A stretch of 64,000 nucleotides of DNA, taken from contig CAVOFX010000001.1 in assembly GCA_963695115.1 (NCBI GenBank), forward strand, positions 28,442 through 92,441. Direction: 5' to 3'. A program made the translations under genes and the position numbers. The DNA comes from an uncultured Microthrixaceae bacterium (GTDB taxonomy: Bacteria; Actinomycetota; Acidimicrobiia; Acidimicrobiales; CAVOFX01). Shown here piece by piece: positions 52 through 31,778 of the stretch (the first letter of the stretch is position 1; each line of letters begins with the position of its first letter). The notes beneath the pieces were generated by a model. That model had not been told where the DNA came from and did not search any database. It saw only the letters and a program-made list of their open reading frames with translations.

Positions 52-125
52 TCGCGGACCACCCCCACCACGATCAACACCAAGATCAACACCCCGACGA
101 TCTGACCCGCGCCGTACGCCGACAC
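52..125 (-). pseudogene. Membrane mini-ORF, copy 1 (GTG at 125; 3' end removed by the IS3 insertion)
   Basis: Reads (V/M)SAYGAGQIVGVLILVLIVVGVVRE. One mismatch to the intact copy (25275-25347) over the shared 73 nt. Lies 27 nt after, and in frame with, the stop of ORF 153-644. Confidence 0.5.
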
Positions 126-152
126 CTCACAACCCCCCGTATCGGATCCGGA

Positions 153-644
153 TCATGCCGAGTACTCCGGTCTCCCAGTCACCTCGGCGACATCGACCTT
201 TGGTGGCGGCTCAAGTCGTCCAACTACATCGCGGAGCTTCCGCCAATGCGCCTCCTCAAAGAGCGCAGCGATGTCGTCACCCCAATCGGAGATCCCCGCA
301 ACCCACTGGCGCTGCGCGTATAGATCGATGCTCAGAACACGGTCGCCTAGAACCTTGAGTATCTCGAGATGGCCGTCGATTGGGCGCAGATCCCGGCGAC
401 GGTCGTCCACCGCCATCCCGAGCGACCGGAGAAAGACAAGATCCTCACTGGACTCTGAGCCGCTGCGCCCCGCCTGGGTGGTTGAGTCAATCGTGAAAGC
501 GTCGGCACCCTCAAGGCCAATGGCGATTTCAAGCACAGCAGACCAGAGGGGTTTCACCCCGGATCGAGCAGCCTGGATCGAAATCAGGAAGAGCACGCCG
601 TCTACTTCCCACCCGAGCGGATCCCTCGCCACGTCCAATGCCAA
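153..644 (-). CDS. Putative immunity protein Imm-1 (163 aa) for orphan toxin CT-1
   Basis: Complete ORF directly downstream of, and overlapping, the end of the rhs C-terminal toxin ORF. The identical protein is encoded again at 13446-13937. Assignment rests on position only. Confidence 0.6.
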   Translation of the reverse strand: MALDVARDPLGWEVDGVLFLISIQAARSGVKPLWSAVLEIAIGLEGADAFTIDSTTQAGRSGSESSEDLVFLRSLGMAVDDRRRDLRPIDGHLEILKVLGDRVLSIDLYAQRQWVAGISDWGDDIAALFEEAHWRKLRDVVGRLEPPPKVDVAEVTGRPEYSA

Positions 645-2567
645 TGAGTTCGGAAGTCAGGATGCTCAGCCAGCCACCTCGCCACGCGTTCAGGACCGCC
701 CTTGAAGGTGGACGGCATCGCACGATGAGCCTGGTGGCGAGCCACACGAGCGAAATTGCCGATGCCCGCGCCGCGCCCCGAATTGAGCGCCGTCCAGCCA
801 GCATGCCCCGGGATCGCGACATCGACAATCGCCATCGACCACTGACCAGCCGTGTACCAACCCGAACACTCATCAACCCCATTCGCCGCCAGATCGATGT
901 CGCGGCCAGTCAGTGGCTCATCAACAGCCTGGGCGATCATGAACATCGGATTGAGATCAAGCGCCCCGCCCGCGAAGTTCACGATCGGCTGCGACACGGG
1001 GGTGGCGTGACCGTTGTGGGGGTTCTCGCAATCGTCGTCGGTCCCGAAGCACCAGTCGCCAGGGAGGTCGACCGACCACAGACCCGATGGGTCGGTGGCG
1101 TTGAGGGGGTTGCCGTACGTGTAGCCGTAGGCCTCCCTCGTGATGGCTTCGATGGGGTCGCGGGTGAGGAATTGGCCGGTGGTGGGGTCGTAGAACCGGG
1201 CCCTCAGGTACTGGAAGCCCGTCTCGTCGTCGGTGTACTGGCCGGCGTAGCCGAGAGGGGTGTCCGCACCGGTGTGGGAGGCGACGTTGCCGTAGGGATC
1301 GTAGGTGTAGGTGCCGACGACGTCGCCTGCGGCGTCGGTGAGCACCCGCACCGATCCGAGCTGGTCGTGGTGCAGGTACGTCACGGTGCCGTCGGGGCCG
1401 TGCTGGATGAGGGGGCTACCGCCGGGTCCGTACACCCAGGCGGTGGTGTCGGCACCTGTCGTCTCGGTGAGAAGCGCCGGGACCCCTGCGGTCGGGTCCC
1501 AGGTGAAGGAGGTGACCTCTCCCGAGGGTGCGGTGCGGCTGCGCCGCAGCCCGTCGCCGTCGTAGGCGTAGGACCAGGTGGCAGACAGCGGGCTGTAGTA
1601 GCCGGCGACGTCGATGGTCACATCCGCGGGGTCCTGGGTCCAGATGTTGATCGCACCCGCTTCGTCGAGGCGGGCCACCACCACGTCGTTGACGCTCTGT
1701 GCGGACTGGTAGTGGAGCGTCGCCGCGGCGGACCAGTCGCCCGGGTTTGGGTTCACCTTCGCCCAGCCCGCGCCCGAGGGGTTCTCGATCGTGACCGAGA
1801 CCACGACCGCGGCTGCGCCGTCGGTGGGAACCCCTCCCAGCCCCGCCACCTGGAAGGCGACGGTCTCACCCGCACCCAGGCGGTCGCACGGCGACGGGTC
1901 ACAGCTCCCCTCGCCGGTGGCGGTCTTGGCGACCCGGGCAGGGGTGATGGGCGAAGACCGTGGCGGAGTCGCCGTCGGGCGTGGAGTAGTAGCCCACCAC
2001 CTCCACGATCGCATCGGTGGCCTCCTTCGTCCACAGCTCCAGGTATCCGGAGCCATCCGGCATGGCCACTGCCATCGTCGAGGTCTCCTCCCCCGAGCGG
2101 TAGTGCAAGAGCGCTGCCGACACGTAGGAGTCGTCGTCGCGGTTCACCTTCGCCCACCCGGCTGCTCCCGGGTTCCACACGGTCAGGTTCACCACCACCG
2201 CCTCGACGCCGGTGGCGGGGATGCCGCCTTGGCCGAGAACGTCGAAGCGCACCGAGTCGCCTGCGGCGAGGCGGTCGCAGGGGGACGGGTCACAGGTGCC
2301 CAGCGTGTTTCGGGTGTCGAGGATCCTCGCGTTGGCAAGCGGCGTGTACTGGCCCTCGAAGCGCTCCACCTGGGGCACCGTCGCCGACACCAGTCGGTCG
2401 GCTCCGTCGTACGCGTAGGAGGCGACGAGGCCGTCGGGGTCCTCCTCGCTGCTGCGGTTCCCCGAGGCGTCGTATCCGAGCTTGGTGGCATCCGGAGGCG
2501 GCGACCCACAGTCACCGAGGCGCCCGCGGGGCGGCCCAGCACAGCTGCTTGGCCCGTTCCAGCAGGC
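602..2567 (-). pseudogene. Orphan rhs cassette 1: 3' rhs fragment (two beta-sandwich repeats, YD repeats, core ending DPSGLW) plus toxin CT-1
   Basis: ORFs 602-2056 and 1899-2648 match the C-terminal third of the main Rhs (GSPPPDAT.LGYD ... WSYAYDGDGLRRSRTAPSGEVTSFTWDP ... YLRARFYDPTTGQFLTRDPI). No start or 5' region. A 2-nt deletion near 1950 (ttcgcccatc vs ttcgagcccatc in the main gene) shifts the frame. The middle repeat domain is absent. Confidence 0.8.
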
Positions 2568-2568
2568 T

Positions 2569-2982
2569 TCACGGGTCCCCCGTGTCACCCTCGACCACGG
2601 CAACCCCGTTGCTGTTGGCGAACTCGGTGAGGGCTTCACGCATGGCATCCGCGTTCCTGAGCGAGAATAGCCGGACTCTGATGGGTGGATGTCTGTGCTT
2701 GTAGTGGATGGTCCACTGATCCGGGAGATCCAGAGAGATCCGGTCGAGCTGTGCTGCCGAAACCAAGCGCTCTCGATATGGCCATCGCCTCAGGATCAAG
2801 GACTCAGGGGCAACGGCAATCCGGCTCATGGCGGTTGATAGGAGATACGCGACGACGAGAGCGAGCACGCCAGCTTGGATCAGCAGGAGCCATTCCTGCG
2901 TCGCAACCGCCCGGACCACTAGACAGAGGCACCCTGAGGCAAGGAGGGCCGCCAGAATCGTGCTGGCCAGCAGCCAGGGCAT
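2569..2982 (-). CDS. Putative immunity protein Imm-2: two TM helices plus a bacterial PH-like C-terminal domain (137 aa)
   Basis: ATG at 2982, 18 nt after the CT-2 stop (3003). Sequence MPWLLASTILAALLASG...LLLIQAGVLALVVAYLL, then IAVAPESLILRRWPYRERLVSAAQLDRISLD. The longer track ORF (to 3327) overlaps the toxin and is unlikely. Confidence 0.6.
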   Translation of the reverse strand: MPWLLASTILAALLASGCLCLVVRAVATQEWLLLIQAGVLALVVAYLLSTAMSRIAVAPESLILRRWPYRERLVSAAQLDRISLDLPDQWTIHYKHRHPPIRVRLFSLRNADAMREALTEFANSNGVAVVEGDTGDP

Positions 2983-3002
2983 TCTCGGCGAGCCCACAAC
3001 GG

Positions 3003-5087
3003 TCAACCGAGACCCCCTCCACCAAGGTCTTCCCCTTCGTCGCACACCCAGCTCCCGAGCGAGTTCAGCATCTCGTTGAAGTAGATCCGCTGGGCGTAGG
3101 GCTTTGGCCTCCATAGGTTCTCGAGCCTGTAGGGCCGGATCCAGTTCCGCTTCGGTCGCCACGGCGAACGTACGTCGACGAGCTTGTTCAGAGCCGCCCC
3201 TGTCACGACATCGAAGCCGGCATCGCCCCAGCTGTAATCGTCGCCCGCAATCGCCGACGTGAGCCATCCGCCCGCGACCGAGCCAGCTGCACCGCAGGCC
3301 CAGACGTGACCGGTGCCGACCGAACACGCACCAACGACCGCCCCGCCCACGGCCCCACCGACGACGGCTGCACCGAACCCCCTCGGGTCCGAGAATCCAT
3401 GCTCGGCCAGGTGGGCGACAGCGCCCGAGGCTCCGCCAACCACACCACCGATTGCTCCTGCGAGCACCAGGTGCGGGAGCAGCCCCGTTGGGTCTGTCGA
3501 GTTCAACGGGTTGCCCCCGACGTACGCGTACGCCGAGCGGGTGAGCGGCTCGATGGGATCGCGGGTGAGGAACTGGCCTGTTGTGGGGTCGTAGAACCGG
3601 GCCCTCAGGTACTGGAAGCCCGTCTCGTCGTCGGTGTACTGGCCGGCGTAGCCGAGAGGGGTGTCCGCACCGGTGTGGGAGGCGACGTTGCCGTAGGGAT
3701 CGTAGGTGTAGGTGCCGACGACGTCACCTGCGGCGTCGGTGAGCACCCGCACCGATCCGAGCTGGTCGTGGTGCAGGTACGTGACGCTGCCGTCGGGGTT
3801 GACCTGGGCGATGGGGGCGGCGCCGGGGCCGTAGAGGTAGCGGGTGGTCTCGGCCCTGTGGTCTCGGCGAACAGCAGCGGCACCGGACCGGAGCGGTCCC
3901 AGGTGAAGTAGGTGGTCTCAGCATCGGGGCCGGTCTTCGAGCGCCGCAGCCCGTCGCCGTCATAGGCGTAGGACCAGGTGGCAGACAGCGGGCTGTAGTA
4001 GCCGGCGACGTCGATGGTCACATCCGCGGGGTCCTGGGTCCAGATGTTGATCGCACCCGCTTCGTCGAGGCGGGCCACCACCACGTCGTTGACGCTCTGT
4101 GCGGACTGGTAGTGAAGCGTCGCCGCAGCGGACCAGTCGCCCGGGTTTGGGTTCACCTTCGCCCAGCCCGCGCCCGAGGGGTTCTCGATCGTGACCGAGA
4201 CCACGACCGCGGCTGCGCCGTCGGTGGGAACCCCTCCCAGCCCCGCCACCTGGAAGGCGACGGTCTCATCCGCGCCCAGGCGGTCGCACGGAGACGGGTC
4301 GCACGTTCCCTCGCCCGTGGCGGTCTTGGCGACCCGGGCGGGGGTGAGGGGTACGAACACGGTTCCCGAGGTGCCCTCGGGTGAGGTGTGGTAGCCGACG
4401 ACGTCGATCACCACGTCGGTGGCCTTGGAGCTGTAGATCGAGATGCGCCCGTTGGCATCGAGCGCGGCGACGGTGGTGAGGTTGGTCGTCTGGCCCGAGG
4501 TGAACCCCATCACCGCGGTGCCCTCGCCACCGCCCTGGCGGTTCACCTTCACGAACCCCGTGCCCGAAGGAGAGTCCGCTGTGATGTTCACCGTGACGGC
4601 CTCCACGCCCTGTGCGGGAAGGCCCACCTGGCCCGAGACCTGCACCTGCACCGTCTCTTGGGCCGCCAGGCGGTCACAGGGGGCGGGGACACATGTGCCG
4701 ATGCTCGAGCGGGTGTCGGTGAGCCGGGCAGGGGTGACGGGCTCGAAGACCGTGGCGGAGTCGCCGTCGGGCGTGGAGTAGTAGCCCACCACCTCCACGA
4801 TCGCATCGGTGGCCTCCTTCGTCCACAGCTCCAGGTGTCCCGAGCCGTCCGGCATGGCCACTGCCATCGTCGAGGTCTACTCCCCCGAGCGGTAGTGCAA
4901 GAGCGCTGCCGACGCGTAGGAGTCGTCGTCGCGGTTCACCTTCGCCCACCCGGCCGCTCCCGGGTTCCACACGGTCAGGTTCACCACGACCGCCTCGACG
5001 CCGGTGGCGGGGATGCCGCCCTGGCCGAGAACGTCGAAGCGCACCGACTCGCCTGCGGCGAGGCGGTCGCAGGGGGACGGGTCACAG
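3003..5087 (-). pseudogene. Orphan rhs cassette 2: rhs 3' fragment (part of repeat 1, repeats 2 and 3, YD repeats, core) plus glycine-zipper-like toxin CT-2
   Basis: ORFs 3605-4867 and 3003-3752 are homologous to the main Rhs. In-frame nonsense near 4878 (gag>tag vs main gene). Frameshift(s) near 3790-3850. Homology to orphan 1 and the main gene ends at 5087. CT-2 = LLPHLVLAGAIGGVVGGASGAV...AAVVGGAVGGAVVGA. Confidence 0.8.
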
Positions 5088-5095
5088 CTTGATCG

Positions 5096-5213: not shown

Positions 5214-5234
5214 GCCAACGCCCTCCCCTCTCCT

Positions 5235-5730: not shown

Positions 5731-6004
5731 CAGCAGCGCACCTGGGGGGGAACAGACTGAGGCTCGACGTCCTCACTTCGCCCCACTGCTCTCGATCGCG
5801 GAAGATCGGCACACCTCTACGGAACTCCGGCAGTCGAGCATGGCTCCGAGCCCCGAAACGCCCAGCCTCGGATTGCACCCACATCGTCCTGGCGGATTCG
5901 TCGAGCGTCGCAATCAGTCTGCCGGAGCTGGTCTCCACCAACGTGTGCCCGTCGACCCTCGACTGATGGATCTCCTCGAGCGATCGGTCGTTAGCAGTTG
6001 TCAT
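5717..6004 (-). CDS. Putative immunity protein Imm-3 (95 aa)
   Basis: ATG at 6004 overlaps the CT-3 stop (TGATG). Sequence starts MTTANDRSLEEIHQSRVDGHTLVETSSGRLIATLDE. The upstream part of the track ORF (to 6073) overlaps the toxin. Confidence 0.55.
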   Translation of the reverse strand: MTTANDRSLEEIHQSRVDGHTLVETSSGRLIATLDESARTMWVQSEAGRFGARSHARLPEFRRGVPIFRDREQWGEVRTSSLSLFPPRCAADADG

Positions 6005-7436
6005 CACGAAACCCTGCGCCGAGCAGCGTCTTCCAGCTCCACAACTCGAAGGACAGAAACGCCGTGAGCCCACGACCCGCGTTCACTGCACGGTCGGTCC
6101 GGTACATCCACTGAACGGCCAAGGGGAGCGACTACGCGTCCTACCCCCGCGGCTGAAGTTCTCCCTGCGGTGGCAACACCACAGCCCTGACCGAATAGCA
6201 GGGCACATCCCGCCCCAGCAGCTGCGCTCAAGCCACCATGGCCGAGAGCTGACAAGACGGAGATGTCGTTGCCGTCGTCGATGAGTGCATCAGACCCAAT
6301 GTGAGCTCCGGCCCCCACCGTTGCACCAGCGGCCATCGTGAGGACACAGCCAACGCCCGTTGAGCAAGCGGCTGCCACGGCAATCCCAGTGCCGACCGTC
6401 GTCGCGACATCGATGATCTCGTGCCGATGGTCACTAGACCCAGTCCACGACACCATCCCACGGCGCGAGCCCCCTGGGGTCGACGAGATTGAGAGGGTTG
6501 CCCCCGACGTACGCGTACGCCGAGCGGGTGAGCGGCTCGATCGGATCCCGGGGAGGAACTGGCCTGTGGTGGGGTCGTAGAACCGGGCCCTCAGGTACTG
6601 CAAGCCCGTCTCGTCGTCGGTGTACTCACCGGCGTAGCCGAACGGCGTGGCGATGCCCGAGCGCTCGGTCGGGTTGCCGTAGGGGTCGAAGGCCTGGGAG
6701 CCCACGACGTCACCGCCCTCGTCGGTGAGCACCCGCACCGAGCCGAGCTGGTCGGCGTGCAGGAACGTCACGGTGCCGTCGGGGCCGTGCTGGATGAGGG
6801 GGCTACCGCCGGGTCCGTACACCCAGGCGGTGGTCTCGGCACCTGTCGTCTCGGTGAGAAGCGCCGGGACCCCTGCGGTCGGGTCCCAGGTGAAGGAGGT
6901 GACCTCTCCCGAGGGTGCGGTGCGGCTGCGCCGCAGCCCGTCACCGTCATAGGCGTAGGACCAGGTGGCAGACAGCGGGCTGTAGTAGCCGGCGACGTCG
7001 ATGGTCACATCCGCGGGGTCCTGGGTCCAGATGTTGATCGCGCCCGCTTCGTCGAGGCGGGCCACCACCACGTCGTTGACGCTCTGTGCGGACTGGTAGT
7101 GAAGCGTCGCCGCAGCGGACCAGTCGCCCGGGTTTGGGTTCACCTTCGCCCAGCCCACCCGAGGGGTTCTCGATCGTGACCGAGACCACCACCGCGGCTG
7201 CGCCGTCGGTGGGAACCCCTCCCAGCCCCGCCACCTGGAAGGCGACGGTCTCATCCGCGCCCAGGCGGTCGCACGGAGACGGGTCGCACGTTCCCTCGCC
7301 CGTGGCGGTCTTGGCGACCCGGGCGGGGGTGAGGGGTACGAAGACCGTGGCGGAGTCGCCGTCGGGCGTGGAGTAGTAGCCCACGACTCCACGATCGCAT
7401 CGGTAGCCTCCTTCGTCCACAGCTCCAGGTGTCCGA
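6004..7436 (-). pseudogene. Orphan rhs cassette 3: rhs 3' fragment (end of repeat 1 fused to repeat 3, YD repeats, core) plus Gly/Ala-rich toxin CT-3
   Basis: ORFs 6004-7392 and 6947-7486 are homologous to the main Rhs. Indels near 7388 and 7155. The conserved TRDPIEPLTRSAYAYVGGNPLNLVDPRGL segment (about 6445-6555) is readable only in a different frame from its flanks. Homology starts at about 7436. Confidence 0.75.
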
Positions 7437-7508: not shown

Positions 7509-7510
7509 TC

Positions 7511-7915
7511 TCAGGCCGGGCGAAGTGCGTTCAGATCAGCCAACGGAGCCACGAGCCGCCTCTCGCGCGCCGCTCGGCTTACGCTCTTGATGTCGGCTCC
7601 CTCGAGGAGCACGAAGGTCTTCGATTGGGTGACGGCCAACAGCGACGACCCCTTGGTAGCGAACCCGGCAACATCAGGCCAGGGCAGGTGCTTCGTGCTC
7701 AGAAAGCCCCTGACCGTGATGCCCCTCTCGTCCGCCATTGTGGAGATTCGCAGCTCACGGGATGCCACAGCGGCAAGTAGCGCCGTAAGTACCAGACCGC
7801 CAAACGACTGCGTGATGACGGTGGCCACGAAAGCGACCGCGGCAACACACGGGCGCGAGCCGCGCACCACGGCCGGAGGGCGAAGGACGAGTTGTTCCGC
7901 CGAGGCCGTCGTCAT
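7511..7915 (-). CDS. Putative immunity protein Imm-4: membrane protein with bacterial PH-like domain (134 aa)
   Basis: ATG at 7915 overlaps the reconstructed CT-4 stop (ATGA). Sequence LVLRPPAVV..., two hydrophobic helices, then LRISTMADERGITVRGFLSTKHLPWPDVAGF. Track ORF residues upstream of 7915 run into the ISL3 inverted repeat. Confidence 0.6.
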   Translation of the reverse strand: MTTASAEQLVLRPPAVVRGSRPCVAAVAFVATVITQSFGGLVLTALLAAVASRELRISTMADERGITVRGFLSTKHLPWPDVAGFATKGSSLLAVTQSKTFVLLEGADIKSVSRAARERRLVAPLADLNALRPA

Positions 7916-7951
7916 CGCTGACGATCCCAGAGCCAGTGCGACAGGTAAGCG
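7912..7951 (-). pseudogene. Toxin CT-4, 3' piece (left of the ISL3 insertion)
   Basis: After removing the ISL3 and one copy of the 8-bp duplication, the frame reads ...LATGGAYLSHWLWDRQR-stop, with the stop overlapping the Imm-4 ATG. Confidence 0.65.
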
Positions 7952-8003
7952 GGCTCTTCGCGATGAACGCTGGGGCGCGGTGAGCAACACCGTCGCTCTC
8001 TAG

Positions 8004-9527
8004 CCACGATCTTTCATAGGGCGGCGTGAACGGGGCTGGTGTTGGTCACGGTGAGTGAGGCGAAGGCGTTGCGGAGCCGGGTGAGGGCGTCGAGGAGTGT
8101 GGTGGTCCATGGCCAGGTGCGGTCGAGGTCGACGCGTCGGCCGGTGGGGGTGGTGCGTCCGGCGATGTGGAGGAGCCGGTGACGGATGGTCTTGGGTGTC
8201 GCGTTTCGGAGCTGGCCGGGGAGGCTGATGTGGCGGGCCCAGGTGAGGAGGTCGTGAGCGGCGAAGCACAGCTGCATCCAGGTCTCGTTGTTGACGATGT
8301 CGTCGAAGGGGAGGTTCGCGAGCCCACATGCTTTGGTGTCGCGGATGACGTTCTCGGCTCGTGCTCGGCGTCGTTGGAACAACTCGAGGGCGGCGATGTC
8401 GTCGTCGGTCTGGTCGGTGATGAACGCGGTGTGGCGTTTGCCTTCGATGGTGTCGAACAAGGTGAGCTGGGCGCCGGGGTGTGGGGTCTCGCGGCGCACG
8501 ATCAGCCGGGTCCCGGTGGGCCACCCGGTCGAGGTCGACGACGTCGGTGAGCTCGACGACCTCGGCGCCGGGGCGGTCGGCGCCGTTGCCGTCGGTGGCG
8601 GGTACCCAGGTGTCGTCGTCGATGTGGAGCAGTCCGTCGCGGACTCGTTCGTCGATCTGGTAGCCGATCGAGAACTCGATGTTGCGGTCCCGGCAGTCCT
8701 CGGCGAACCAGTGCGAAGCGCCAGCAGAATCAGCACCGGACGACCAGTTCTTTGCCGGCGTCGTCGGGGTGATCACCCTGGTTGTGACCGGCTCGCCATT
8801 CTGGTGGGAGCGCGGCGATGGCCTGGTCCAACACGACGATGTGGTCGACCGCGGTGTTCGCGCCGGCGTTGCCGGGGCGCATGATTCCGGCGAAGACCTC
8901 GTCGCAGTCGCCGGCCATGGCCAACAGCGGGTGGTGCCCGTAGGTGCGCTTGTAGGTCGGCGCCGCGTCCTGCTTGTCGGCCTTGGTCGTGATGATCGTG
9001 GCGTCGATGTCGATTACCAACAGCTCACCGTCAGGACCCGCGCCAGCCGCCCACGCCCGTTCACGGGCGACAGCCCGAGCTCGTGTGATGCCGCGCAGTT
9101 CGGGCGGGCCGACGGCTTGGAAGGTGCGCCACACCGTCGGGTCCGACGCCACCCGCCCCGCGATCGTCGGCTGGTTGCGCAACACGGCGATGTCCGACAG
9201 GGCGGTGGCGCCATCGGCGAGGGCCAACACCATCTGGGCCATGGTGCGACCCGGTCGATGGATCCGGCCCGGCAGGCGGGCGAACGCGTCGTCGAACCCG
9301 GCGGTCAGACCACACAGATCAGCGGTCTCGGCCAGCCATACGAGACCGCCACGAGAGGTCAGACCTTCCCCGTTGCCGGTCACCGTGCGTGGCGAAGCGA
9401 GCCTGGTAGATTTCGTCACGAAAGCCCTCCCGAATCTGGGGGTTTGATGTTGGTTCAGCGACTTACATCATCCCAGGTCGGGGGGCTTTTCGCGAGCCCA
9501 CCAAAGGCCCGCTACGAAAGATCGTGG
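8004..9527 (-). mobile_element. IS1380-family insertion sequence nested in the left end of the ISL3 element
   Basis: Inverted repeats ccacgatctttc (8004-) and gaaagatcgtgg (-9527), flanked by ctag on both sides (8000-8003 and 9528-9531; a palindromic 4-bp duplication or an IR extension). Confidence 0.8.
8014..9419 (-). pseudogene. IS1380-family transposase, split over three frames
   Basis: 8730-9419 (MTKSTRLASPRTVTGNGEGLTSRGGLVWL...VIDIDATIITT), 8000-8776 (middle) and 8014-8736 (...DIVNNETWMQLCFAAHDLLTWAR) together give a full DDE transposase. At least two frameshifts. Confidence 0.8.
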
Positions 9528-9611
9528 CTAGGGGTCCGCCTGCCGCACCAGAGGCCTCGCCATTGTTGCGACTGCTCGAAGGTCGACAACAAGAGGAGGC
9601 CCCTGGTGAAC

Positions 9612-10911
9612 ATGCAACCTAGCGATGGAGCGACCGCGCTGTTGGGACTGCACGGCTTCGTGGCAGGCGCACAGCTCGAACACGAGGGGGAGGTGTGGAT
9701 CGTGGTCGAGACGACCGCTGACGTCGCAGGATGTCCGGGCTGTGGCACGCGGGCCGTCGGCAACGGTCGGCGCACCGTGCGCGTGCGGGACCTGCCAGCA
9801 GGCGATCGGCCCGTGGTGCTGGTATGGCGCAAGCGCACCTGGCGCTGTCCGGCCCCGGAGTGCGAGGTGGGCTCGTTCTCCGAGGAGGTCGACGAGATCG
9901 CTCCGCGCGCCGCGCTCACCGAGCGCGCCCGCTCCGAGATCTGCCGGCGCGTGGGAGCCGACGGCCACTCGGTCGCACAGGTCGCTGCGGCGTTCGGGGT
10001 GGGCTGGCACACCGCATGGGCTGCCGTTGTCGACCACGGCCGAGCGAGGGTGGATCACCTCTCTCGCCTCGGTGCACCGAGCGCGCTGGGCCTCGATGAG
10101 ACCTCCTTCCTCGCGCGCGACTGCCACCCACCCGACCCTTCTGGTGACGGGCTTCGTCGACTTGGACCGAGCCCGCCTCGTCGACGTTGTTCCTGGTCAC
10201 AGCGGTTCCGCGGTGGTCGAGTGGCTCGAGGCCAAGCCCGGGCCGTGGAGGGCGGGAATCGCCCTCGCGGCACTCGACCCGTTCCGGGGCTATGCGACGG
10301 GCATCCGCACCGGGCTGCCCCAGGCGCGCCAGGTGGTGGATCACTTCCACGTGATCCGCCTCGCCAACGCCGCGCTCGACGACGTGCGTCGGCGAGTGCA
10401 ACAAGACACGCTGGGCCATCGTGGCCGCAAGGGTGACCCGCTGTATCGGATCCGACGCCTGCTGCTCGTCGCCCACGAGCGGCTCGGCGACCGTGGCTGG
10501 GATCGCATCGAGCAAGGGCTGCGCCTCGGTGACCCTGACGGGGAGGTCGGCGCTGCGTACCTCGCCAAGGAGCTTCTGCGCGAGGTGTATGCGACGCGAT
10601 CGCCCAAGGTGGCGCGTCGGCGCCTGCGCCGCTTCTACCGGCACTGCCACAGCGCCGAGGTCCCCGAGCTCGCCCGGCTCACCAAGACGATCCGCTCTTG
10701 GGAGGCCGAAGTGTTGGCCTACCACGACACCGGGCTCACCAACGCCGCCACCGAAGGCGAGAACCTGCTCATCAAGAAGATCAAGCGTGTCGGACACGGC
10801 TTTCGCAACTTCGAGAACTACCGGCTGCGCCTGTTGCTCCACTGTGGCGTGTCGTGGAAGCCTCGGCGAGTCGCATCAATGCGCGGCCGCCAACCAGCGT
10901 TGATCGCGTAG
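9612..10911 (+). pseudogene. ISL3-family transposase with one frameshift near 10120
   Basis: N-terminal zinc-ribbon part (CPGCGTRAVGNGRRTVRVRDLPAGDRPVVLVWRKRTWRCPAPEC) lies in the frame of ORF 8679-10436. The rest (LLVTGFVDLDRARLVDVVPG...NAATEGENLLIKKIKRVGHGFRNFENYRLRLLL) is in ORF 9625-10911. Confidence 0.85.
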
Positions 10912-10915
10912 AGCC

Positions 10916-11224
10916 GGTAAGCGCCACCCGTCGCCAGCGATGCCCGTCGGAGGTTCGGTCCGAGGAAGTTCCTGACCACCATCGACGCTGGGAGCCCAGC
11001 CCCATCCGTGATCGTCGTCCTGAGAAGAGCACCACCCATGTCGTCCACCATCGACAACGTTCCAGAGACGCCGCGGAGCGACCTCATGTTCACCGCTCCC
11101 GCGGCGACGTCGATCCCCGTGTTGACCAGGAAATCGGTCGAGAACCCCTCGCACGCGTCGTAGCGGTTGCTGGCATTGATCGCCACGACGATGCCGTTCG
11201 CAGCGAAACAGCCGAGACCGCCAG
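10916..11224 (-). pseudogene. Toxin CT-4, middle piece (between the ISL3 and IS1634-like insertions)
   Basis: Open frame GGLGCFAANGIVVAINASNRYDACEGFSTDFLVNTGIDVAAGAVNMRSLRGVSG...LATGGAY. Part of track ORF 10818-11186. Confidence 0.6.
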
Positions 11225-13212
11225 CCCGGGTTCCGCAGTTGGTGGTGACACGAGTGCCTGAAAGTGGGGGTTGACCTGGGGGAACGCGGCTTGTGCGCTT
11301 GTGCCGCGTGTGTCCACGAGCGTCGGGGTGCCTGCTGGGGGTGTTTGGGCAGCTCAGGCGGGGTGCAGGTGGGTGATCCGGGGTGGCGGATCGATCCCAC
11401 AGGCGCCGAGAAAGCCCAAGGCGGCGTCGCTCGGCGGGGTTGTCTGCACGACGGTGCCGACGGACCCTCGGAGGGTGACGGCATGGACACGGCCGAGCTC
11501 GGTGGCGATGCGCCGCCAGGTGGTGTCACAACGCCGTTCGGCGACTCGGATCAACAGCAGGGCCAGCCAGCACAACAGGACGTGGGCGCGGATGCGAGGC
11601 TCGATGCGGTGGAACACGGGCCGCAGCTCGAGGGTGGACTTGAGGTCGCGGAACCCTCGCTCGGCTTCGAGCAGGTTCTTGTAGCCCAGCGCCACGTCCT
11701 CGGCGGGCAGGTCGGGGTCCGAAGTGGACAGCAGGTACTTGCCGTCGAGGCGTTCCTCGGCGCGGATCGCTGCCCGGTCGATCCGGAGGCGACCGGTCGC
11801 GCGTCTGGCGCAGGTAGCGGCCGAGCGCCTTGTGGTCCCGCAGCGCGCACTCCGCCTTGCGGTGGGCGTCGTCGGAGATCTTCTTGCCCGTCTTCTTCGC
11901 ACGCGCCTTGTCGCGGGCCCGGGCGATGGCGATGGCGTCGAGCTCGGCTTCGAGTCGGGCGACCGCCGCGTCGCGCTGAGCCCTGTCGCGTTCGGCCTCG
12001 AGCGGGGTTGTGGCAGATGATCCACCGCTTGTCCGGCGTCGAACGCCGAGCCGCACCTCCTTGACCCGCAGGTTGTCACGCACCTGCCTGGTAGCGGCCC
12101 TGGCGGACCCAGTGCTTCGAGCGCGTCCGGCGAGCCGTCACGCATCCGCTCGCCGGCGATCCAGTGCCCACCGGCGCGTGTCAGATACGCCAGGTTCGCG
12201 TCCGAGGAGAACCCGCGGTCCACCACGGTCACGACCCGGCCGAGCCGCCAACCCCGCAGACCGTCTTTGACCTCGGGCAGCACGGTGGCGTCGCGTGTTG
12301 CCCGGCCAGCACCAGCACCGCACCGGGATCCCCTCGCGGGTGACCGCCAGACCGATGACGATCTGGGGCAGGTCGGGGCGGTGGTCCTTGGAGTGCCCGT
12401 AGCGACGGAACCCGTCGTCGCCCTCGTCGGTGTCACGTTCGAAGTAGGTCGAGGTCGTGTCGAAGAACAACAGGTCGACCTCGAGGTTCAACAGGTCGGC
12501 GACGGCGAAGAACACCGCTTCTTGCACCTCGGCGTCGGTGTCGGCCTCGACCAACAGGTCCATCGCCCGATACGCCTGGTCCTCGTCCATCGACTCGAGC
12601 CCCGGCACAGCCACGTCGTTGGTGGCCCACTCCGCGGTCGCCAGCTTCGACATCGGGTCGATCGCCCGGTTGGCGACCAACGCGAACAGCACCCGCTCCA
12701 CATCGGTGCTGAACCGGCGGCCACCGAGCACCTTGCGAAGCGCCGTGTCGACGCCGAGCTGGCGCCACAGACCATCGAGCAGCCATGCCGTCCCCGCCGG
12801 GCGGGACTCCACGACAGCCAGCGCGTCGCCGGCCTGCTCGCCGACGTCGGGGCCGACGACGGCGTCTGGCTCACCGAGGTACCGGTTGATCGAGCCGACC
12901 AGCCGGCGCAGCCCGTCGGCGTCGAGGCGGTCCTCGCGGCCCAGGTTCACCAACACCTCGGCCTGGGTCACCCCCTCCACACGGCGGTTGTGGGCGAGCT
13001 GCACGTAGCGCACCACCGACCCGTCCCGGTTCCGGCGCTGTGTGGTCCGCAGGTACATGCCCACACCATCGCGTCCACCCCACGCGATAGCAAGCACCAC
13101 ATCCCAAGTCGTGTGCCCACGTTTTCGGGCCCGTCAACGAACCCGCAACCCCCTGACCAGCACCTTCGCGTCTGCCAACCCCCTCATGTGCCCATCAACT
13201 GCGGAACTCGGG
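11225..13212 (-). mobile_element. IS1634/IS4-like insertion sequence
   Basis: Inverted ends cccgggttccgcagttgg (11225-) and caactgcggaactcggg (-13212). Flanked by a 5-bp direct repeat gccag (11220-11224 and 13213-13217). Confidence 0.8.
11354..13100 (-). pseudogene. IS1634-family transposase, several frameshifts
   Basis: 12138-13100 (MYLRTTQRRNRDGSVVRYVQLAHN...LLFFDTTSTYFE...GHSKDHRPDLPQIVIGLAV), 11526-12083 and 11354-12436 (...LGYKNLLEAERGFRDLKSTLELRPVFHRIEPRIRAHVLLCWLALLL) are pieces of one transposase in different frames. Confidence 0.8.
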
Positions 13213-13331
13213 GCCAGTGAAGGTGCAGGTTCCCGCGACGAACGCCGTCTGAACGAGAGGGTTCGACACGACGCCGGCACCGCGGCACGAGTCATCGCCG
13301 CTCGACAGGAACCCGATCGTGCAGCAGACCC
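13213..13331 (-). pseudogene. Toxin CT-4, 5' piece (no rhs core upstream)
   Basis: Open frame GVCCTIGFLSSGDDSCRGAGVVSNPLVQTAFVAGTCTFTG joins in frame to 11219 once the IS and one gccag copy are removed. Resembles the Cys-containing segment that follows DPSGLW in CT-1 and the main toxin. Confidence 0.5.
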
Positions 13332-13418
13332 CTTCTTGATGATCTCGCGGACCACCCCCACCACGATCAACACCAAGATCAACACCCCGACGATCTGACC
13401 CGCGCCGTACGCCGATAC
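13332..13418 (-). pseudogene. Membrane mini-ORF, copy 2 (start position GTA; no in-frame stop at the usual place)
   Basis: One mismatch to 25262-25347. Differs from copy 1 at the start codon (GTG in copy 1, GTA here). Confidence 0.45.
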
Positions 13419-13445
13419 CTCACAACCCCCCGTATCGGATCCGGA

Positions 13446-14487: not shown

Positions 14488-14840
14488 AACTCAACAGTCC
14501 AACGATCCGCCGCTGCGAACCCGGCCTCGCACCCGACACCACCTGCGGATTCCCGGGTAGGACAGCCCGACGACGGTCCAGACACGACCCGCGACGGCGC
14601 GGACGCGTGTTTCTGGCCCGACCGGTGTTCGCCGCGACGGCACACACCGCCGACATGGCGTGCAGCGCGAGGCGCGGTGTCGATGGCCAGGACGGTCACC
14701 CGAGCATTCTCGCACCCGGCGGCGGTCGGAGGTCGGCCATCGCGTCGGCAATCCGATCGGGCCCGGACACGGCCGCTGTGTGGCCCGCAGCGGGCCTCGT
14801 GGCCATCGGGATGGGTGGAAGGTGCCGGCGTTGCCGGCGC

Positions 14841-18120: not shown

Positions 18121-18475
18121 TGGCCAGCGCGCTGGCCCAGCCCGCCTCGCCCCCAACCCGCAGGGAGCGAAGCGACCGGAGGGGCGGGAGCCCAACTGAG
18201 CGAAGCGAAGGCGGGAGCATCGTTGGCACACCCGGACGGGACGGCACGGGATGGCACGGCTCGTTCCCGGTCGCGTTCCCGGTCCGGTCCCGGCGGACGC
18301 CCTGCTCGGCCGCGAGCCAGTCTGTGACCTCTGCATTGGGGTGTCCCGGTAGGGCCGGGGTGGCGGGGAGGTCGTAGGCGTGCGCGCGAGTGGTGGCGTC
18401 GGTCGGGGGCGGTGACTGGGACGCGTGATCGTGGGTGCGCTGGCGGTCGGGATGTGGGGGCGGTGATGGCCGTGG

Positions 18476-18493: not shown

Positions 18494-18576
18494 TGGCCGG
18501 CGCTGGACGCGACAACGCGCGCACCCCGATGCAGGGTGCGCGCGCGGTGGGCCGGTGGGTCGTGCGGTTCTCTAGA

Positions 18577-18978
18577 TCAACCAGAAGAACCCAAAGAAGA
18601 AGAACCGTTCGCGCCGTCGTCGAGGCCCAGCTCGGCCCGGAGCCGAAGCACTTCAGGGTCCGGTTCGTGCCACCGACCGGCCAACGATTCGAACACGACC
18701 CGGCCCGGATCGGGCATCGCCGCCAGCTCGTAATCGGACAGCGCTTGGGGGTCACCGGAGTGTTCTCGGTAGGCGATCGTCACCGCCGCATACACATCCG
18801 CCGCCCAACTTCGGGCCTCGGCGAGGGGCACGACGATCACCGCCTCGACCATTGAATCGGGCTGCGTCACCCGCACCTCGACCTCCTTCTCGTTCGCCAC
18901 CCAGGCGTCCGGGAGGCCCTCGGCGCTCACGTAGACGATGGCCCGGGTCGGGTTCGAGGCGGGGTCAGGGGCGGTCAT
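18577..18978 (-). CDS. Hypothetical protein (133 aa), translationally coupled to the recombinase gene
   Basis: The ATG overlaps the recombinase stop (ATGA at 18975-18978). No recognisable motif. Confidence 0.5.
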   Translation of the reverse strand: MTAPDPASNPTRAIVYVSAEGLPDAWVANEKEVEVRVTQPDSMVEAVIVVPLAEARSWAADVYAAVTIAYREHSGDPQALSDYELAAMPDPGRVVFESLAGRWHEPDPEVLRLRAELGLDDGANGSSSLGSSG

Positions 18979-19959
18979 GAGGGGTCCTCCTCGTCGTCGA
19001 GATCGTCGATGGCGTGGTCGTCCTCGGCGTCGGCTTCGGCATCGAGGACGTCGAACAACGCCGCCCGCCGCGCCTCGTCGTCGGCCAGTTCGTCGCCGGT
19101 CAGGCCGCGGTCACGGGCTGCTTCGTTGCGGGATCCGGGGTGGGTGGCGTCGTGGATGGCGCGGAGTTGTTCAACCGAGACCCGCGTGTAGATCTGGGTG
19201 GTGGACAGCTCGGCGTGCCCCAAGATGGCTTGGATGAACCGGATGTCGGCGCCGCCTTCGAGCATGAGCGTGGCCATCGTGTGCCGGTAGAGATGGCACG
19301 ATCCGGTCTTGGCGACGCCGGCGGCGTCGAGGTAGCGACGCACCCGCGCCGTGGCCCAGGCGGGGCTGAGCGGGAACCCGTCCTGGCCCAACAACAACCA
19401 GCCGTCGTCAGGCTCGACCACGAAGTGCGGCCGCACCTCGGCCAGGTAACGCTCGGTCCACACCAGCGCCCGTTCACCGATCGGCACGACACGGTCGCGC
19501 TTGCCTTTGCCCTGGTTGATGAACAACGACCGCCGGTCGGCGTCGAGGTCGTAGAGCCGCAACGACACCAGCTCGGAGCGGCGGATCCCGCACGAGTAGA
19601 GGATCTCGAGGATGGCCCGGTCCCGCACCCCCAACGGGTCCGTCAGGTCCGGCTGGCACATGATCGCTTCGACCTCGGCCACGGTCAGCACATGCTTCGG
19701 CAACCTGTGCTCGACGCGGGGCAGCTCGAGCTCGGAGGCGGGGTTGAACAGGATCCGGTTCGTCTTCGTCGCCCACCGGAAGAACGCCCGGATCGGAGTG
19801 AGCCGGCCCTTCTGCGTCAGGAACGTGAGGGGTTTGCCGTTGGGTTGGCGGTAGTGGAACAGGTGCCGCTGATAGCGGTCCAGCATCGGCTTGGTCACCT
19901 CCGCCGTCCTCGTCACGCCCCGATTGGCCAACCACTGCTGGACGTAGCGGAGACGGCGG
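18975..19959 (-). pseudogene. Tyrosine recombinase (XerC/D-phage integrase family), C-terminal 327 codons, separated from its 5' end by IS3
   Basis: Catalytic region ...RAILEILYSCGIRRSELVSLRL...GKGKRDRVVPIG...HLYRHTMATLMLEGGADIRFIQAILGHAELSTTQIYTRV (R..HxxR..Y). The 800-aa track ORF is this frame read on through the antisense of the IS. Confidence 0.85.
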
Positions 19960-20007
19960 ATAGGGCATCCCCCCAGACCGTGGAGACCTCCACTATGAGG
20001 AGGACCC

Positions 20008-28700: not shown

Positions 28701-31700
28701 GTGCCCTGGATCATCTGCGTCCGGCGGCCCGCGAGGTCGTAGTCGACGTCGCTCACGTCAGGCGTGGCCGAATCGGAGTAGTAGATCGACGTGAGCTGGT
28801 CGGCGTCGTCGTAGCCGTACGTGATGCAATCGACAGGGGTCCCCTCGCAGTTCCCTCCGGGACCCCAGCGGTTGGCCAGCCGAGATGCCGCGTCGTATCG
28901 GAAGGTCGTGATGCGGCCCAGGGGATCGGTCACAGTCTCCAGCCGATCCAGATGGTCATACGCATACTCCGTGAACAGGGCGGTGTCTACCTTGTCGGCG
29001 ACGCCCTGGTACTGGCGCTTCAGCGTCCCGTCGGGCCAGTACTCGTTCTGGAGCCAGGTGGTGTCGGCGCGCCGCACCCACCGCAGCTGACCGGCGTCGT
29101 CGTACTCGTAGGTCGTCGTCCGTTGCTCGGCGTCGGTGACCGACACCAGCCGGCGCATGTCGTCGAACGCGTAGTGGGTGATCTCATCCTCGGGGTTGGT
29201 CACCTGACGGGCGTCGCCGTGCATCGTGTGGTTCGAGAACGTCGTGCGGTTGTCGGCCGGGTTCCCGCCGGGGATGTTCCCCAGCGGCGCCACGGTCTGG
29301 GTCATCCAGCCGATGCTGTTGTGGAGGAACGTCGTCTCGTTGCCCTCGGGATCGGTCGCCGACTCGGGGTATCCCCGAGCGTCGTAGTCGTAGTCCCAGC
29401 CCTTGCCGTTGGGGTCGACCACCGTGGTGACATCGCCGGGATGGTCGTCGTCTTCGCGAAGGTACTGCACCGTCTGGACCTCGGAGGTGCCGGCCAGCGG
29501 CGTCGAGACCGCCTGGAGGTTCGCCCTCGTGTCATAGGCGAAGGTGGTGGCCTCGCTCTGGCCACCCCAGCTGCGGGTCACCGATGTCGGCAGATCCGTC
29601 CACGTCGGGTGGTAGGCGGTCACGGTCTGGCGGCCCAGCGGATCGGTCGCCAGGGTCTGCATCGAGTTGGCGTCGTAGCCGAACGTCCAGACGTGGTTCA
29701 ACGGGTCGGTCAGCGTCGTGATGCCCAACGAGTCCGGGTCGTGCACGTAGGTCGTGGTCGCAGCATCGGAGCTGCCCCAACCCTCGGTGGACGACACCAG
29801 CAGGTTCCCGTCGTATCCGTCCACCCGCACGTCGCCGTCGGGGAAGGTCACCTTCGTCGAACCGGGGATCGACGTGTAGTCGAAGATGGTGGTGCGGCCG
29901 ATCGCGTCGGTCTGGGAGACCACCCGGTCCTCGGCGTCGTAGACGTTGGTGATCGGCGCCGCCGACCCCGGCTCGCGAATCGACGTCAGGCGGTGCGCGT
30001 CGTAGCCGAACATCCAGACCTTCCCAGGCGCACGTCGAGGGTCACCTTCCACAGATCCCCGTTGGCGTCATAGTCGTATGTCACGACCCGGCCCGCCGGA
30101 TCCGTGACGTTGCGCACCCGGCCGGCTTGCCAGGTGAGCGTCAGCTGCCGGCCCGCCTCGTCGGTGATCGATGTCAGCTCCCCGCTCAGACTGTAGGAGA
30201 GGCTCGTGACATAGCCGTTCAGGTCCGTGTGGGTGAGCAGGCGGCCGTCGACATCAGAGAACGTGAAGATGTCCCTTCCGCCCCGACGTTCGAACGTGAA
30301 CGTGCCGTCGCCGTTGTCCACCAGCGAGGCCTCGACATACGGCGCCGCGACGAGGAGCTCCCCTGGCGGTAGAAGGCGACCTGGGAGCCCGACTCCTGAT
30401 GGACCCGGACGATCGCTCCGTCGGCCAGGCTCTCCAGGCGCAGGTTGAACCGGTGCGTCCACCCGTGGCCGAGAGGTCCGTCGACGTCCGAGACCAACGA
30501 GTTGTACGACCGCGACCACCCCAGACCGAACCCCCGGCCGGGGACCTCCAGGTCCCACCACGTCTCGTGGAGGTTGCCCGACGCGGTGTTCACCGGATCC
30601 GCCGCGGTCCTGTAGCAGGTGCAGAGCTGTGGGATGGACGGGTTCTCACCCAGCATCTCCATGACGCTCACCGCCGAACCGATCCACTCCTCGAGACCCA
30701 GGGCTCCGGCGTTGAACGCCCGGATGCGGTTGTTCCCCGTGTCGGCGATCCAGATCACCGACCCGTCCGGGGCTGATGCGAGCCCCTCCGACCAGTCGAT
30801 GCGCCCCGGTATGCCGTCAGCCCAGCCCCGGGTCCCGTCACCGGCGACGGTGACCGCACCCAGGCCCGAGCCCAGCAGGATCTGAAGCGTCTCGGCTGGG
30901 GAACTCACCGGCACGCCACCTGGGCCGACCGCCAGGCCGCCCTTGTGGGGGAGCGGCCCGAGCCAGGTGAACGATTGAGAGGTCTCTTCGAACAGCAGCA
31001 GGTGGTCGTTCCCTCCGTTGGAAGAAGGGGTCTTCAGCATGGCCACGTCGCCGTCGAGCCAGACCCAGTCCCTGACTGCCGCTCCCCAGGGCCAGCCCGG
31101 TGGAGCCCCGAGCCGTGTCCCATCCCGGGGTGAGGCCGGAAGCTGCGACAGCGGGATCCGGTACAGCTCATGGATGAACCACTTGTCCCCGCTCGTGTCA
31201 GGTGGGGCCGCGTAGTACATGAACCCGTCGTGCACCGAGATGGCGTCGTTCACGTTCGATAGGAGCACCTCCGAGGACCCGGCGGGATTCGCCCGATCCA
31301 AACGGATCACGTCCTTGTTGGTGCTCCATGTGGCCGCCTCACCTCGTACGACATAGATCGATTCCTCATCGACCTCGATGTCCGACAATTCGGTCGGAGC
31401 GGCCCCCAGCACGCCACCCGAGAGCAGTGTCTCCACCTTCCCGTAGTCGGGATCACCTGGCGCCACCCCCACCGTCACCCGGCGCAACACGTTCGGACCC
31501 GTCGCTCCTCCTCCGTCGAGCGCGTACAGATACATCCCGGACGGGTCGGCCTCGATGTCGCTCACGTGCGCGAAGGTCGCGGTACCCGTCGGCCCTCCGG
31601 TGCCGTCGGCAAGGCCGGGGGCGCCGTTCCCCGCGACCGTGGAGAGGCCCTCCGGGAGCGAGACCTGCGCGGCCGCCGGCTCCACCGGCAGTCGCGGGGC

Positions 31701-31778
31701 TCCGACCGGCGCCACCGCCAACAGGCCGGCCAGCAGACACAGCACCACCCCGACACCCAGCGCTCTCAAGACCCGCAT
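25784..31778 (-). CDS. Main Rhs/YD-repeat polymorphic toxin (~2000 aa): Sec signal, NHL-like propeller, RHS shell with three inserted beta-sandwich repeats, core, C-terminal toxin. Two frame breaks in this sequence.
   Basis: MRVLRALGVGVVLCLLAGLLAVAPVGA (signal). ADTGNNRIRAF (NHL). DPVNTASGNLHETWWDLEVPGRGFGLGWSRSYNS (shell N-plug). Many YD repeats. YLRARFYDPTTGQFLTRDPI...GNPLNATDPSGLW. Frame breaks near 30360 (C/G4 run) and near 30022 (G3 run) link ORFs 30219-31778, 29986-30561 and 25784-30052. Confidence 0.9.
26795..27950 (-). repeat. Three tandem ~120-aa repeat domains inside the Rhs coding sequence
   Basis: Each unit: (V/T)F.P(L/I).PAR..(D/K)T...G.C.P.PCDRL.A.E.V.(F/V).V.G..G.P..G..AV.V..T......G..KVN......A......(S/G)....N....V..D..G.I.......D..I.V.GY(Y/H)(S/T). 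Confidence 0.8.

Follow-up and report, generated by a model that had tools for sequence, protein, structure and literature searches.

We analysed a 64,000-nucleotide stretch of DNA from an uncultured Microthrixaceae bacterium (contig CAVOFX010000001.1; this whole stretch is called the window below), which has a G+C content of 62–74% and carries on its minus strand a predicted Rhs polymorphic-toxin locus with orphan rhs fragments, in a GC-rich actinobacterium. We conclude, with a probability of roughly 80%, that this Rhs orphan locus holds a decayed integrative mobilizable element (IME) of ~11.9 kb, running from 26381 down to 14489, of a kind that would swap the toxin tip of the rhs gene into which it integrates. 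The putative C-terminal toxin domain of the main rhs gene (CT-main), the putative immunity gene behind it (Imm-main) and an 84-bp repeat (R) are predicted to be cargo of the element, and a truncated copy of a second putative toxin and immunity pair, CT-1 and Imm-1 (14488–13332), is predicted to be the displaced former tip. Homology was checked by self-blastn of the window and domains were assigned by Pfam and NCBIfam profile searches; L-numbers denote comparison contigs, mostly metagenomic, and the evidence for the mechanism of the element is all comparative.

The mechanism that we propose is as follows. Elements of this family encode a repressor (RstR-like), a primase (DnaG-like), a tyrosine recombinase of XerC type (integrase), the product of a small gene (orfX) and a MobF relaxase, with promoter-less, start-less cargo at one end i.e. 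the 3' half of an Rhs core, a toxin domain and an immunity gene. To judge by sequence comparison, the circular form recombines via nnCGACCC, which covers the Asp-Pro codons of the Rhs core, with the same codons in a resident rhs gene. The secretion and shell part of the host Rhs would then be fused in frame to the tip supplied by the element, with the element's immunity gene just behind it, and the old tip and its immunity gene would be shifted to the far side of the element (here ~12 kb downstream), joined to a non-coding tail. Repeated integration would give tandem arrays. The new tip would presumably be expressed from the rhs promoter, packed in the YD-repeat shell and released like other Rhs toxins; the element may be mobilized by a helper conjugation system, and element-free cells would be sensitive to element-keeping neighbours, so that the element would be stabilised.

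The evidence that carries this model comes from two triples of attachment (att) sites. In the first, L014 reads relaxase, tail, ACCCGCGACCCA, CTc, Imm and XRE repressor (attP), and in L015, which comes from a sibling sample, the order is rhs YD-repeat coding sequence, ACCCGCGACCCA, CTc, Imm, XRE, primase, integrase, orfX, relaxase, tail, ACCCGCGACCCA and a different tip, CTa; to one side of the 12-bp core L014 and L015 are 99.4% identical, to the other 100%. In the second, L027 is a 10,105-bp contig whose 30-bp terminal repeat closes it into a 10,075-bp circle, in which TACGACCCCAC links the tail to a half-core and a CT closely like CT-main. The integrase protein of L026 is identical to that of L027, and in this contig rhs coding sequence (..ETGYIYLRARH) is joined at the 11-bp TACGACCCCAC to L027-type cargo, and past the relaxase the tail is joined at TACGACCCCAC to a different CT. 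This second triple defines the att crossover in the window, whose cargo has 74% amino acid identity to that of L026. Junctions of the attP kind were seen in relatives only (L014, and L027 with its 30-bp terminal overlap), and no natural empty site (attB) was found.

The junctions are alike well beyond these two cases. The position at which tail meets core is common to the window and six other independent elements (L001, twice; L018; L012/13; L025; L026), and the aligned tails share the motif GCAGGTSRSGTCGGRTG ~60 nt from a junction that reads ..GAGTTAC/nnCGACCC, where the slash marks the join. The target varies by subfamily, with TACGACCC (Y-D-P), CGCGACCC (R-D-P) and AACGACCC (N-D-P) all conforming to nnCGACCC and corresponding to three Asp-Pro sites of the Rhs core. 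The direct repeats that flank the elements measure 17 bp in the window; those of L025 (135 bp) and L034 (28 bp) are longer, those of L015 (12 bp) and L026 (11 bp) shorter. On the attR side of the window the tail is likewise joined to the core at the fixed position, so that of the sequence-only reading's truncated CT-1 copy plus Imm-1, the repeated CT-1/Imm-1 segment stands but its assignment as a recombination orphan does not. A scan for promoters and terminators around the displaced tip found nothing.

The comparison with L027 also bears on the origin of the present tip. Positions 251–2856 of L027 are collinear with 26182–23556 of the window at 85%, and CT-main, Imm-main, R, repressor and primase therefore appear to be one imported unit; the tip that had been taken as native to the main gene is matched by the cargo of a circular relative. 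In L044 the backbone is 99.2% identical to that of the window up to R and is followed by different cargo, which indicates that the cargo is modular and that R marks the edge of the backbone. The cargo has no start codon, and the core piece that it carries aligns only to positions 37–76 of the 76-position TIGR03696 model; it would be functional only as a fusion to a host gene.

R occurs three times, after Imm-main, after the displaced Imm-1 and after the Imm-1 of orphan 1, and forms the start of a 36-aa hydrophobic open reading frame (ORF). An early model in which R was the integration site was rejected on the strength of the two att triples and the L027 collinearity. A fuller version of it would make all of the cassettes, including the truncated CT-1, orphans of homologous recombination, with an unrelated mobile element inserted via R (25262–25345 and 13332–13415) and CT-1 as its cargo. 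The two copies of R do flank the segment as direct repeats, 98.8% identical, CT-1, Imm-1, R and XRE are contiguous in L001, and the integrated structure is formally alike whether the site is R or the core. The alternative nevertheless seems to us very unlikely, as the circular L027 bears CT-main-like cargo in collinear order, the break between forms in both triples lies in the core and not past the immunity gene, the L014/L015 family has the same architecture with no R at the nucleotide level, and L044 places R in the backbone. The end of R (CCGCGAGATCATC) is loosely like the att region (CCGCGACCCCATC).

The primase/replicase-like gene and the relaxase would also suit a replicating mobilizable plasmid, in which the XerC-like enzyme only resolved multimers and from which chromosomal copies arose by RecA-mediated single crossovers of its rhs fragment with resident rhs genes. 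The ~45 bp of similar sequence shared by attP and attB in the window subfamily, and the 135-bp flanking repeat of L025, would fit such an origin. However, the two triples share a core of only 11–12 bp, and L034 one of 28 bp, which is short for RecA, the junction is fixed within each subfamily and always places nnCGACCC beside the conserved tail, and the point at which the cargo is truncated is identical across elements with unrelated cargo. We therefore regard this origin as improbable.

A third possibility is that the junctions are assembly chimeras or collapsed metagenome repeats and that the island is merely inserted beside an rhs array; the comparison contigs are mostly metagenomic, rhs cores are repetitive and the window contains many frame disruptions. 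We give this scarcely any credence, because the architecture recurs across different projects, in eight or more independent assemblies, and in six complete Ralstonia megaplasmids, the 11–17-bp cores are shorter than assembly k-mers, and the fusions keep the reading frame.

The copy in this genome is, to judge by its reading frames, dead. The main rhs gene (two frame changes), Imm-main (one), the integrase (split by an insertion sequence, IS), the relaxase (five insertions), the orphans and two transposases are all disrupted, whereas the primase, the repressor and an ORF with molybdopterin oxidoreductase domains (44820–47693) are intact, and for this reason we read the disruptions as real decay. 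An intact 916-aa relaxase ORF in L001 served as the reference for the five insertions. All five (14965–17069) are of a single base, with no deletion among them, and most lie outside homopolymers; such an insertion-only pattern is unusual for natural decay and for nanopore error alike.

Several points weigh against the proposed element. (i) The frameshifts of the window may partly be assembly errors, although the 3.2-kb primase in the same element is intact. (ii) The window's own element has yielded neither a circular form nor an empty site, and its att core is taken from relatives with 86% integrase identity; the case is wholly comparative, and the circular graph path of L027 could also stem from a tandem dimer. 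(iii) R at 13332–13415 is followed by non-element DNA (13213–13331), although in every relative R leads into the repressor and backbone, and this is unexplained. (iv) The tip-swapping mechanism would not produce the long rhs arms of orphans 1–3, nor does it explain the two 100% identical CT-1 cassettes (1033 bp) around the orphan array.

The coordinates of the element and of the surrounding rhs features are collected in Table 1.

Table 1. Features of the rhs locus and its predicted element, listed from the main gene downstream along the minus strand.
Feature	Coordinates	Strand	Remarks
Main rhs gene	25784–31778	-	Signal-peptide-like N-terminus, weak NHL, DUF6531, YD-repeat shell, three tandem domains, Rhs core, CT-main; pseudogene as sequenced
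Predicted attL core TTCTACGACCCCACCAC	26382–26398	-	Codons F-Y-D-P-T-T of Rhs core; resident rhs upstream, element cargo downstream
Predicted element cargo 1	25784–26381	-	3' half of Rhs core (TIGR03696 positions 37–76) and CT-main, in-frame fusion to resident rhs
Predicted element cargo 2, Imm-main	25348–25780	-	One frameshift (~25550–25560) relative to the intact 143-aa ORF of L027
36-aa hydrophobic peptide ORF	25238–25348	-	First 84 bp (25262–25345) are repeat R; annotated in L041 and L044 as a 36-aa gene
RstR-family XRE repressor	24759–25196	+	Intact
DnaG-like primase with C-terminal extension, 1074 aa	21469–24693	-	Toprim/DnaG; intact
XerC-like tyrosine recombinase	18975–21472	-	Split by IS into 21332–~21470 and 18975–19961
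IS3-family IS	19962–21328	+	Transposase 20274–21212; GAT target duplication; inverted repeats TGGGC(T/A)TCCCCCC..GTGGAGACC
orfX, small conserved element gene	18577–18978	-	No assigned function
MobF/TrwC relaxase with RecD-like helicase	14844–17596	-	Five +1 insertions (~17069, 16185, 16122, 15463, 14965)
Element tail, non-coding, abutting the core	14489–14843	-	Motif GCAGGTSRSGTCGGRTG ~60 nt from junction; ends ..GAGTT
Predicted attR core TTCTACGACCCCACCAC	14472–14488	-	Identical 17-mer
Predicted displaced former tip	13332–14471	-	Core 3' half and CT-1 (stop at 13895), Imm-1 (13446–13937), R (13332–13415)
IS1634-like IS	11225–13212	-	DDE_Tnp_1; 30-nt inverted repeats; GCCAG target duplication; frameshifted transposase
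ISL3-family IS	~9532–10950	+	Ends undefined
IS1380-like	8000–9531	-	DDE_Tnp_1_4; 20-nt inverted repeats
bPH_6 membrane protein (earlier 'Imm-4')	7511–7990	-	Bacterial PH domain; function not established
Orphan 3	6004–7435	-	rhs arm 92% to main 26283–27205; core with 1-nt deletion at TRDP codons; degenerate Gly/Ala-rich CT-3
Orphan 2	3003–5087	-	rhs arm 90.8% to main 26282–27886, frameshifted; core; glycine-zipper-like CT-2
Putative Imm-2	2569–2985	-	Membrane protein; no family match
Orphan 1	602–2567	-	rhs arm (frameshift ~2040; one ~287-bp repeat unit missing), core, CT-1
Imm-1 (153–644) and R (48–124) of orphan 1	48–644	-	R cut at 48 by the end of a second IS3-family copy (1–47)

In the 10.8 kb that separate the main gene from the truncated CT-1, where the sequence-only reading had placed small immunity-type ORFs, the Pfam and NCBIfam searches identified repressor, primase, recombinase and relaxase genes, which make up a mobile-element backbone. 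The recombinase matches PF00589 (E=1.4e-38), and an intact homologue scores 421 bits against the XerC subfamily model NF002331 (cut-off 371); the relaxase scores 262 bits against the MobF model NF041492 (cut-off 100). The other element genes are the repressor, the primase, orfX and small ORFs, with no mating-pair apparatus among them. The closest relatives of the locus are contigs from Ilumatobacteraceae and 'Actinomycetes' metagenome-assembled genomes; among species-representative genomes the closest is L001, an Ilumatobacteraceae contig that is collinear with the window at 89–95% and has no IS3-family IS. A search of viral contigs with the primase gave no match.

Two inverted copies of a 47-bp GC-rich hairpin (15159–15205 and 18145–18191) lie upstream of the relaxase gene and within its 3' coding part; L001, L012, L015, L025 and L027 have the conserved pair as well, and it is a candidate origin of transfer (oriT) or regulatory site. 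The IS3-family copies at 19962–21328, which splits the integrase, and at 1–47, in the R behind orphan 1, are 94% identical over the visible 51 bp, and both lie beside GAT.

The YD-repeat shell and Rhs core described earlier for the main gene are borne out by the profile searches. PF05593 matches eight stretches (E=1.2e-50) and TIGR01643 also matches (E=1.7e-35); the Rhs-associated core model TIGR03696 scores 77 bits (cut-off 32.5) at residues 1183–1257 of the ORF at 25784–30052, and the core-end motif GNPLNATDPSGLW lies at 26296. DUF6531 is present (E=7e-20), and a putative signal peptide, recognised by eye only, reads MRVLRALGVGVVLCLLAGLLAVAP...AAAQ. The N-terminal propeller had been called NHL-like, for which the Pfam match is sub-threshold (E=0.029) and phmmer matches to NHL-repeat proteins span 5–21% of the query, so that the assignment is a weak one. 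The domain searches of the main gene found no PAAR. Over 25784–31778 the main gene does not form a single ORF: the reading frame changes from 0 to 2 near 30355 and to 1 near 30015–30040, leaving ORFs at 30219–31778 and 25784–30052; the deposited source record annotates the same 519-aa N-terminal ORF. The exact frameshift positions could not be fixed from L025, L034 and L003, which are too distant or are frame-broken themselves.

Between the last YD repeats and the core lie three tandem domains of ~125 aa (26788–27967, minus strand) with the pattern PAR..DTR...G.C.P.PCDRL...V.G..G.P..G..AV.VN.T...G..KVN...D..I.V.GYY and no Pfam match. The same domains occur in orphans 1–3, with a copy number in orphan 1 that differs from that of the main gene. 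Every orphan arm begins inside this block or just upstream of it.

PxxxxDPxGL-type core ends are found on the minus strand at 26296, 14386, 6481, 3494 and 1093, which gives four core-bearing cassettes downstream of the main gene rather than the 'at least five' counted before; the supposed 'CT-4' contains neither an Rhs core nor DPxGL. The cassettes had been thought to diverge completely after DPxGL. They part ways ~30 codons before it, right after YDPTTGQFLT(RDP), and CT-main and CT-1 are ~35% identical over ~120–150 residues beyond it; orphans 2 and 3 have a common core end, and CT-2 and CT-3 are unrelated to CT-main. Among 1.8 billion representative proteins CT-main has 55 relatives, mostly short ORFs, and it matches nothing in Pfam, NCBIfam, Protein Data Bank (PDB) sequences or PDB folds. 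By eye only, the Gly/Ala-rich CT-2 and CT-3 have a membrane-active look; tblastx of the cassettes against the comparison loci gave only GC-driven noise.

Orphans 1–3 read as classical orphan modules. In the self-alignment, main-gene positions 26258–28150 match orphan 1 (1055–2553) at 88.5–92.9% with one internal repeat unit missing, orphan 2 (3480–5083) at 90.8% and orphan 3 (6468–7435) at 92.4%. The nucleotide homology to the 3' third of the main gene that had been reported is thus present, at 88–93%, in fragments that are 5'-truncated, as are the long homology arms claimed for this GC-rich actinobacterial Rhs locus: they measure 0.97–1.6 kb, each starts just past the preceding small ORF, and a small ORF lies downstream of each CT. 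The orphans probably arose by homology-driven insertion or duplication rather than through the tip-swapping element. The suggestion that homologous recombination swaps the tips may hold for orphans 1–3 but fails for the largest feature of the locus, the predicted site-specific element.

Copies of the CT-1 cassette flank the orphan array. Positions 48–1195 equal 13341–14488 at 99.65% over 1,148 bp, and within this repeat the CT-1/Imm-1/R cassette (124–1156 and 13417–14449) shows 100% identity along its 1033 bp. Of the four mismatches in the whole repeat, three lie within the first 39 bp, beside the att core, and this pattern suggests a very recent duplication or a Campbell-type event.

The remaining cassette that had been proposed, 'CT-4 plus Imm-4', does not survive as an Rhs module. 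'CT-4' is an ORF (13331 to 13218 and 11224 to 10912) whose two parts join in frame when the IS1634-like element is taken out together with its 5-bp GCCAG duplication; it has no core motif, family or structure match, and is followed by two more IS and the bPH_6 ORF. Three different IS are clustered between 8000 and 13212, of which at least the IS1380-like and IS1634-like elements have frameshifted transposases and the ISL3 element has its transposase domains split over two overlapping ORFs.

Integrase homologues number 7,907 at E<=1e-40, and elements of similar design were found around integrase homologues in other contigs. L025, a 553-kb contig, carries an Rhs gene (with an Abhydrolase_8 CT), Imm, the element and a tail joined to FYDPTTG...-CT, with flanking repeats of 135 bp (98.5% identical) and a second element behind. 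In L034 one Rhs ORF, longer than 2153 aa, is followed by Imm, the element, a tail joined to NDPLNKIDPLGLR, a CT and an Imm (NDPLNK tip), and then housekeeping genes, with a 28-bp repeat. In L037 and L038 (JGI Ga0498926_0003288 and Ga0498929_0002476) at least three elements stand in tandem; every one of them has a DUF6650 gene, and the trio of small cargo genes differs from element to element. In L033 (GCA_038320935.1, JBBQEQ010000026.1) a repressor-primase-recombinase unit with a 67% identical integrase and no relaxase lies directly behind an NHL/PKD/PASTA protein ending in PT-HINT and a toxin, with a paralogous toxin gene on its far side. The tip-swap principle may extend beyond Rhs to other polymorphic toxins.

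The arrangement is not confined to actinobacterial contigs. A protein search of plasmid records led to the Ralstonia solanacearum Po82 megaplasmid (NC_017575.1, 145635–172385; L045), which carries Rhs, CT, XRE, primase (46% identical), integrase (52% identical), a tail joined to a half-core and CT, and an orphan whose 1.08-kb arm shares 95% identity with the main Rhs. Six complete Ralstonia genomes have this identical arrangement; no relaxase was detected in the examined Po82 stretch and no empty site was found in Ralstonia, the displaced tip being confined to the six element-bearing strains. Primase matches also occur in megaplasmids or chromids of Caballeronia, Pseudomonas, Enterobacter and Leptospira. 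On balance we slightly favour the broader view that these loci represent a cross-phylum class of small elements, which would exploit the delivery scaffolds of polymorphic toxins while bringing no more than a toxin tip and its immunity gene, whose Xer-like recombinase would be aimed at the Asp-Pro codons (nnCGACCC) of the conserved pre-toxin core and would re-arm any compatible rhs gene in frame, and whose sequential integrations would be a major source of orphan arrays.

The orphan part of the locus belongs to a known kind, and the element resembles IMEs, integrons, shufflons and the displacement of effectors in Vibrio without belonging to any of them. Orphan rhs-CT/immunity and cdiA-CT/cdiI modules have been described in Enterobacteria, e.g. 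the rhs orphan of Salmonella Typhimurium (PMC3967940). Like these, orphans 1–3 are 5'-truncated, lie downstream of a full gene, are homologous to its 3' part and have their own toxin end and small ORF. Unlike them, they belong to a putatively Sec-type, GC-rich actinobacterial Rhs with no type VI secretion system (T6SS) context, their arms are 0.97–1.6 kb long, and the neighbouring cassette at 13332–14488 starts at a fixed point of the core and is joined to a mobile-element tail.

Some IMEs insert into the 3' end of a gene and bring a replacement 3' end, and tandem accretion at one att site is known. The element shares with IMEs and integrative and conjugative elements a tyrosine recombinase, a relaxase without mating apparatus, direct repeats, a circular form in relatives, tandem arrays and the supply of the distal part of the target, but here the replacement end differs from the displaced one, as it brings a new toxin and immunity gene, and the target is a protein motif conserved across a family, so that any rhs gene bearing the motif would be a potential site. 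As in integrons, a Xer-related recombinase is combined with a promoter-less unit placed beside a resident promoter, the newest coming first and older ones being moved downstream and silenced. However, the recombinase scores only 106.7 bits against the integron integrase model TIGR02249 (cut-off 265), and no attC and no IntI-specific features were found; a 10-kb 'cassette' with its own replication and mobilization genes, inserting inside an ORF to give a translational fusion and bounded by an rhs core half and a backbone rather than by attC, differs from an integron cassette. Site-specific switching of C-terminal ends occurs in the R64 shufflon with Rci and in the tail-fibre segments of phage Mu (Gin) and P1 (Cin). 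There, too, the recombinase site lies inside a conserved coding part and alternative C-termini are exchanged, but by inversion within one replicon, whereas here the new end would arrive on a transferable circle.

Tyrosine recombinase genes linked to arrays of orphan immunity or toxin genes are known elsewhere. Integrases associated with Rhs have been noted, without a mechanism (PMC5727410), in bee-gut work that speculated that such integrases capture Rhs sequences; recombinase-linked immunity arrays (rAID) have been described in Bacteroidales (PMC12247911). Unlike the present element, rAID collects immunity genes only, with conserved intergenic repeats, and our loci have the order cargo-repressor-primase-recombinase-relaxase with no repeated intergenic motif save R. 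Neither source defines an att site in a toxin gene or the replacement of a tip, and neither has been shown to be related in sequence to the element. T6SS effector genes of Vibrio cholerae undergo sequential displacement (PMC5361080), in which a new effector/immunity pair likewise replaces the old effector and old immunity genes accumulate downstream, but that model rests on homologous recombination of acquired DNA, without a dedicated element, recombinase or att site. Neither full-text literature searches nor a Ralstonia T6SS pangenome paper turned up an account of an element with the rhs core as its target and tip replacement as its effect.

The arrival of new tips and the building of orphan arrays have so far mostly been ascribed to unspecified horizontal transfer and homologous recombination. 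The locus and its relatives offer a concrete, testable vehicle i.e. a 10-kb element with a defined recombinase, a 7–12-bp target in a conserved motif and start-less cargo. If the model is true, weapons would be spread by mobile elements that need not carry the 6-kb delivery part, the element would be predicted to be stabilised by toxin-mediated policing of cells that lose it, orphan tips joined to a tail would be explained, and a natural tool for in-frame C-terminal swapping would be at hand. The copy in Ralstonia solanacearum makes laboratory tests feasible.

Three further features of the window lie outside the locus or at its edge. An N6/N4 DNA methylase gene (31566–33461, plus strand) is divergent beside the start of the rhs gene. 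At 40551–43449 (minus strand), downstream of a CbbQ/NorQ ATPase gene, two overlapping ORFs of 619 aa (without a domain) and 458 aa (VWA) resemble one CbbO/NorD-type gene with a frame change, which bears on the reality of the frameshifts in the assembly. Finally, a direct repeat (62586–63024 and 63561–63999, 73% identical) is shared between two adjacent plus-strand ORFs, which are paralogous genes.

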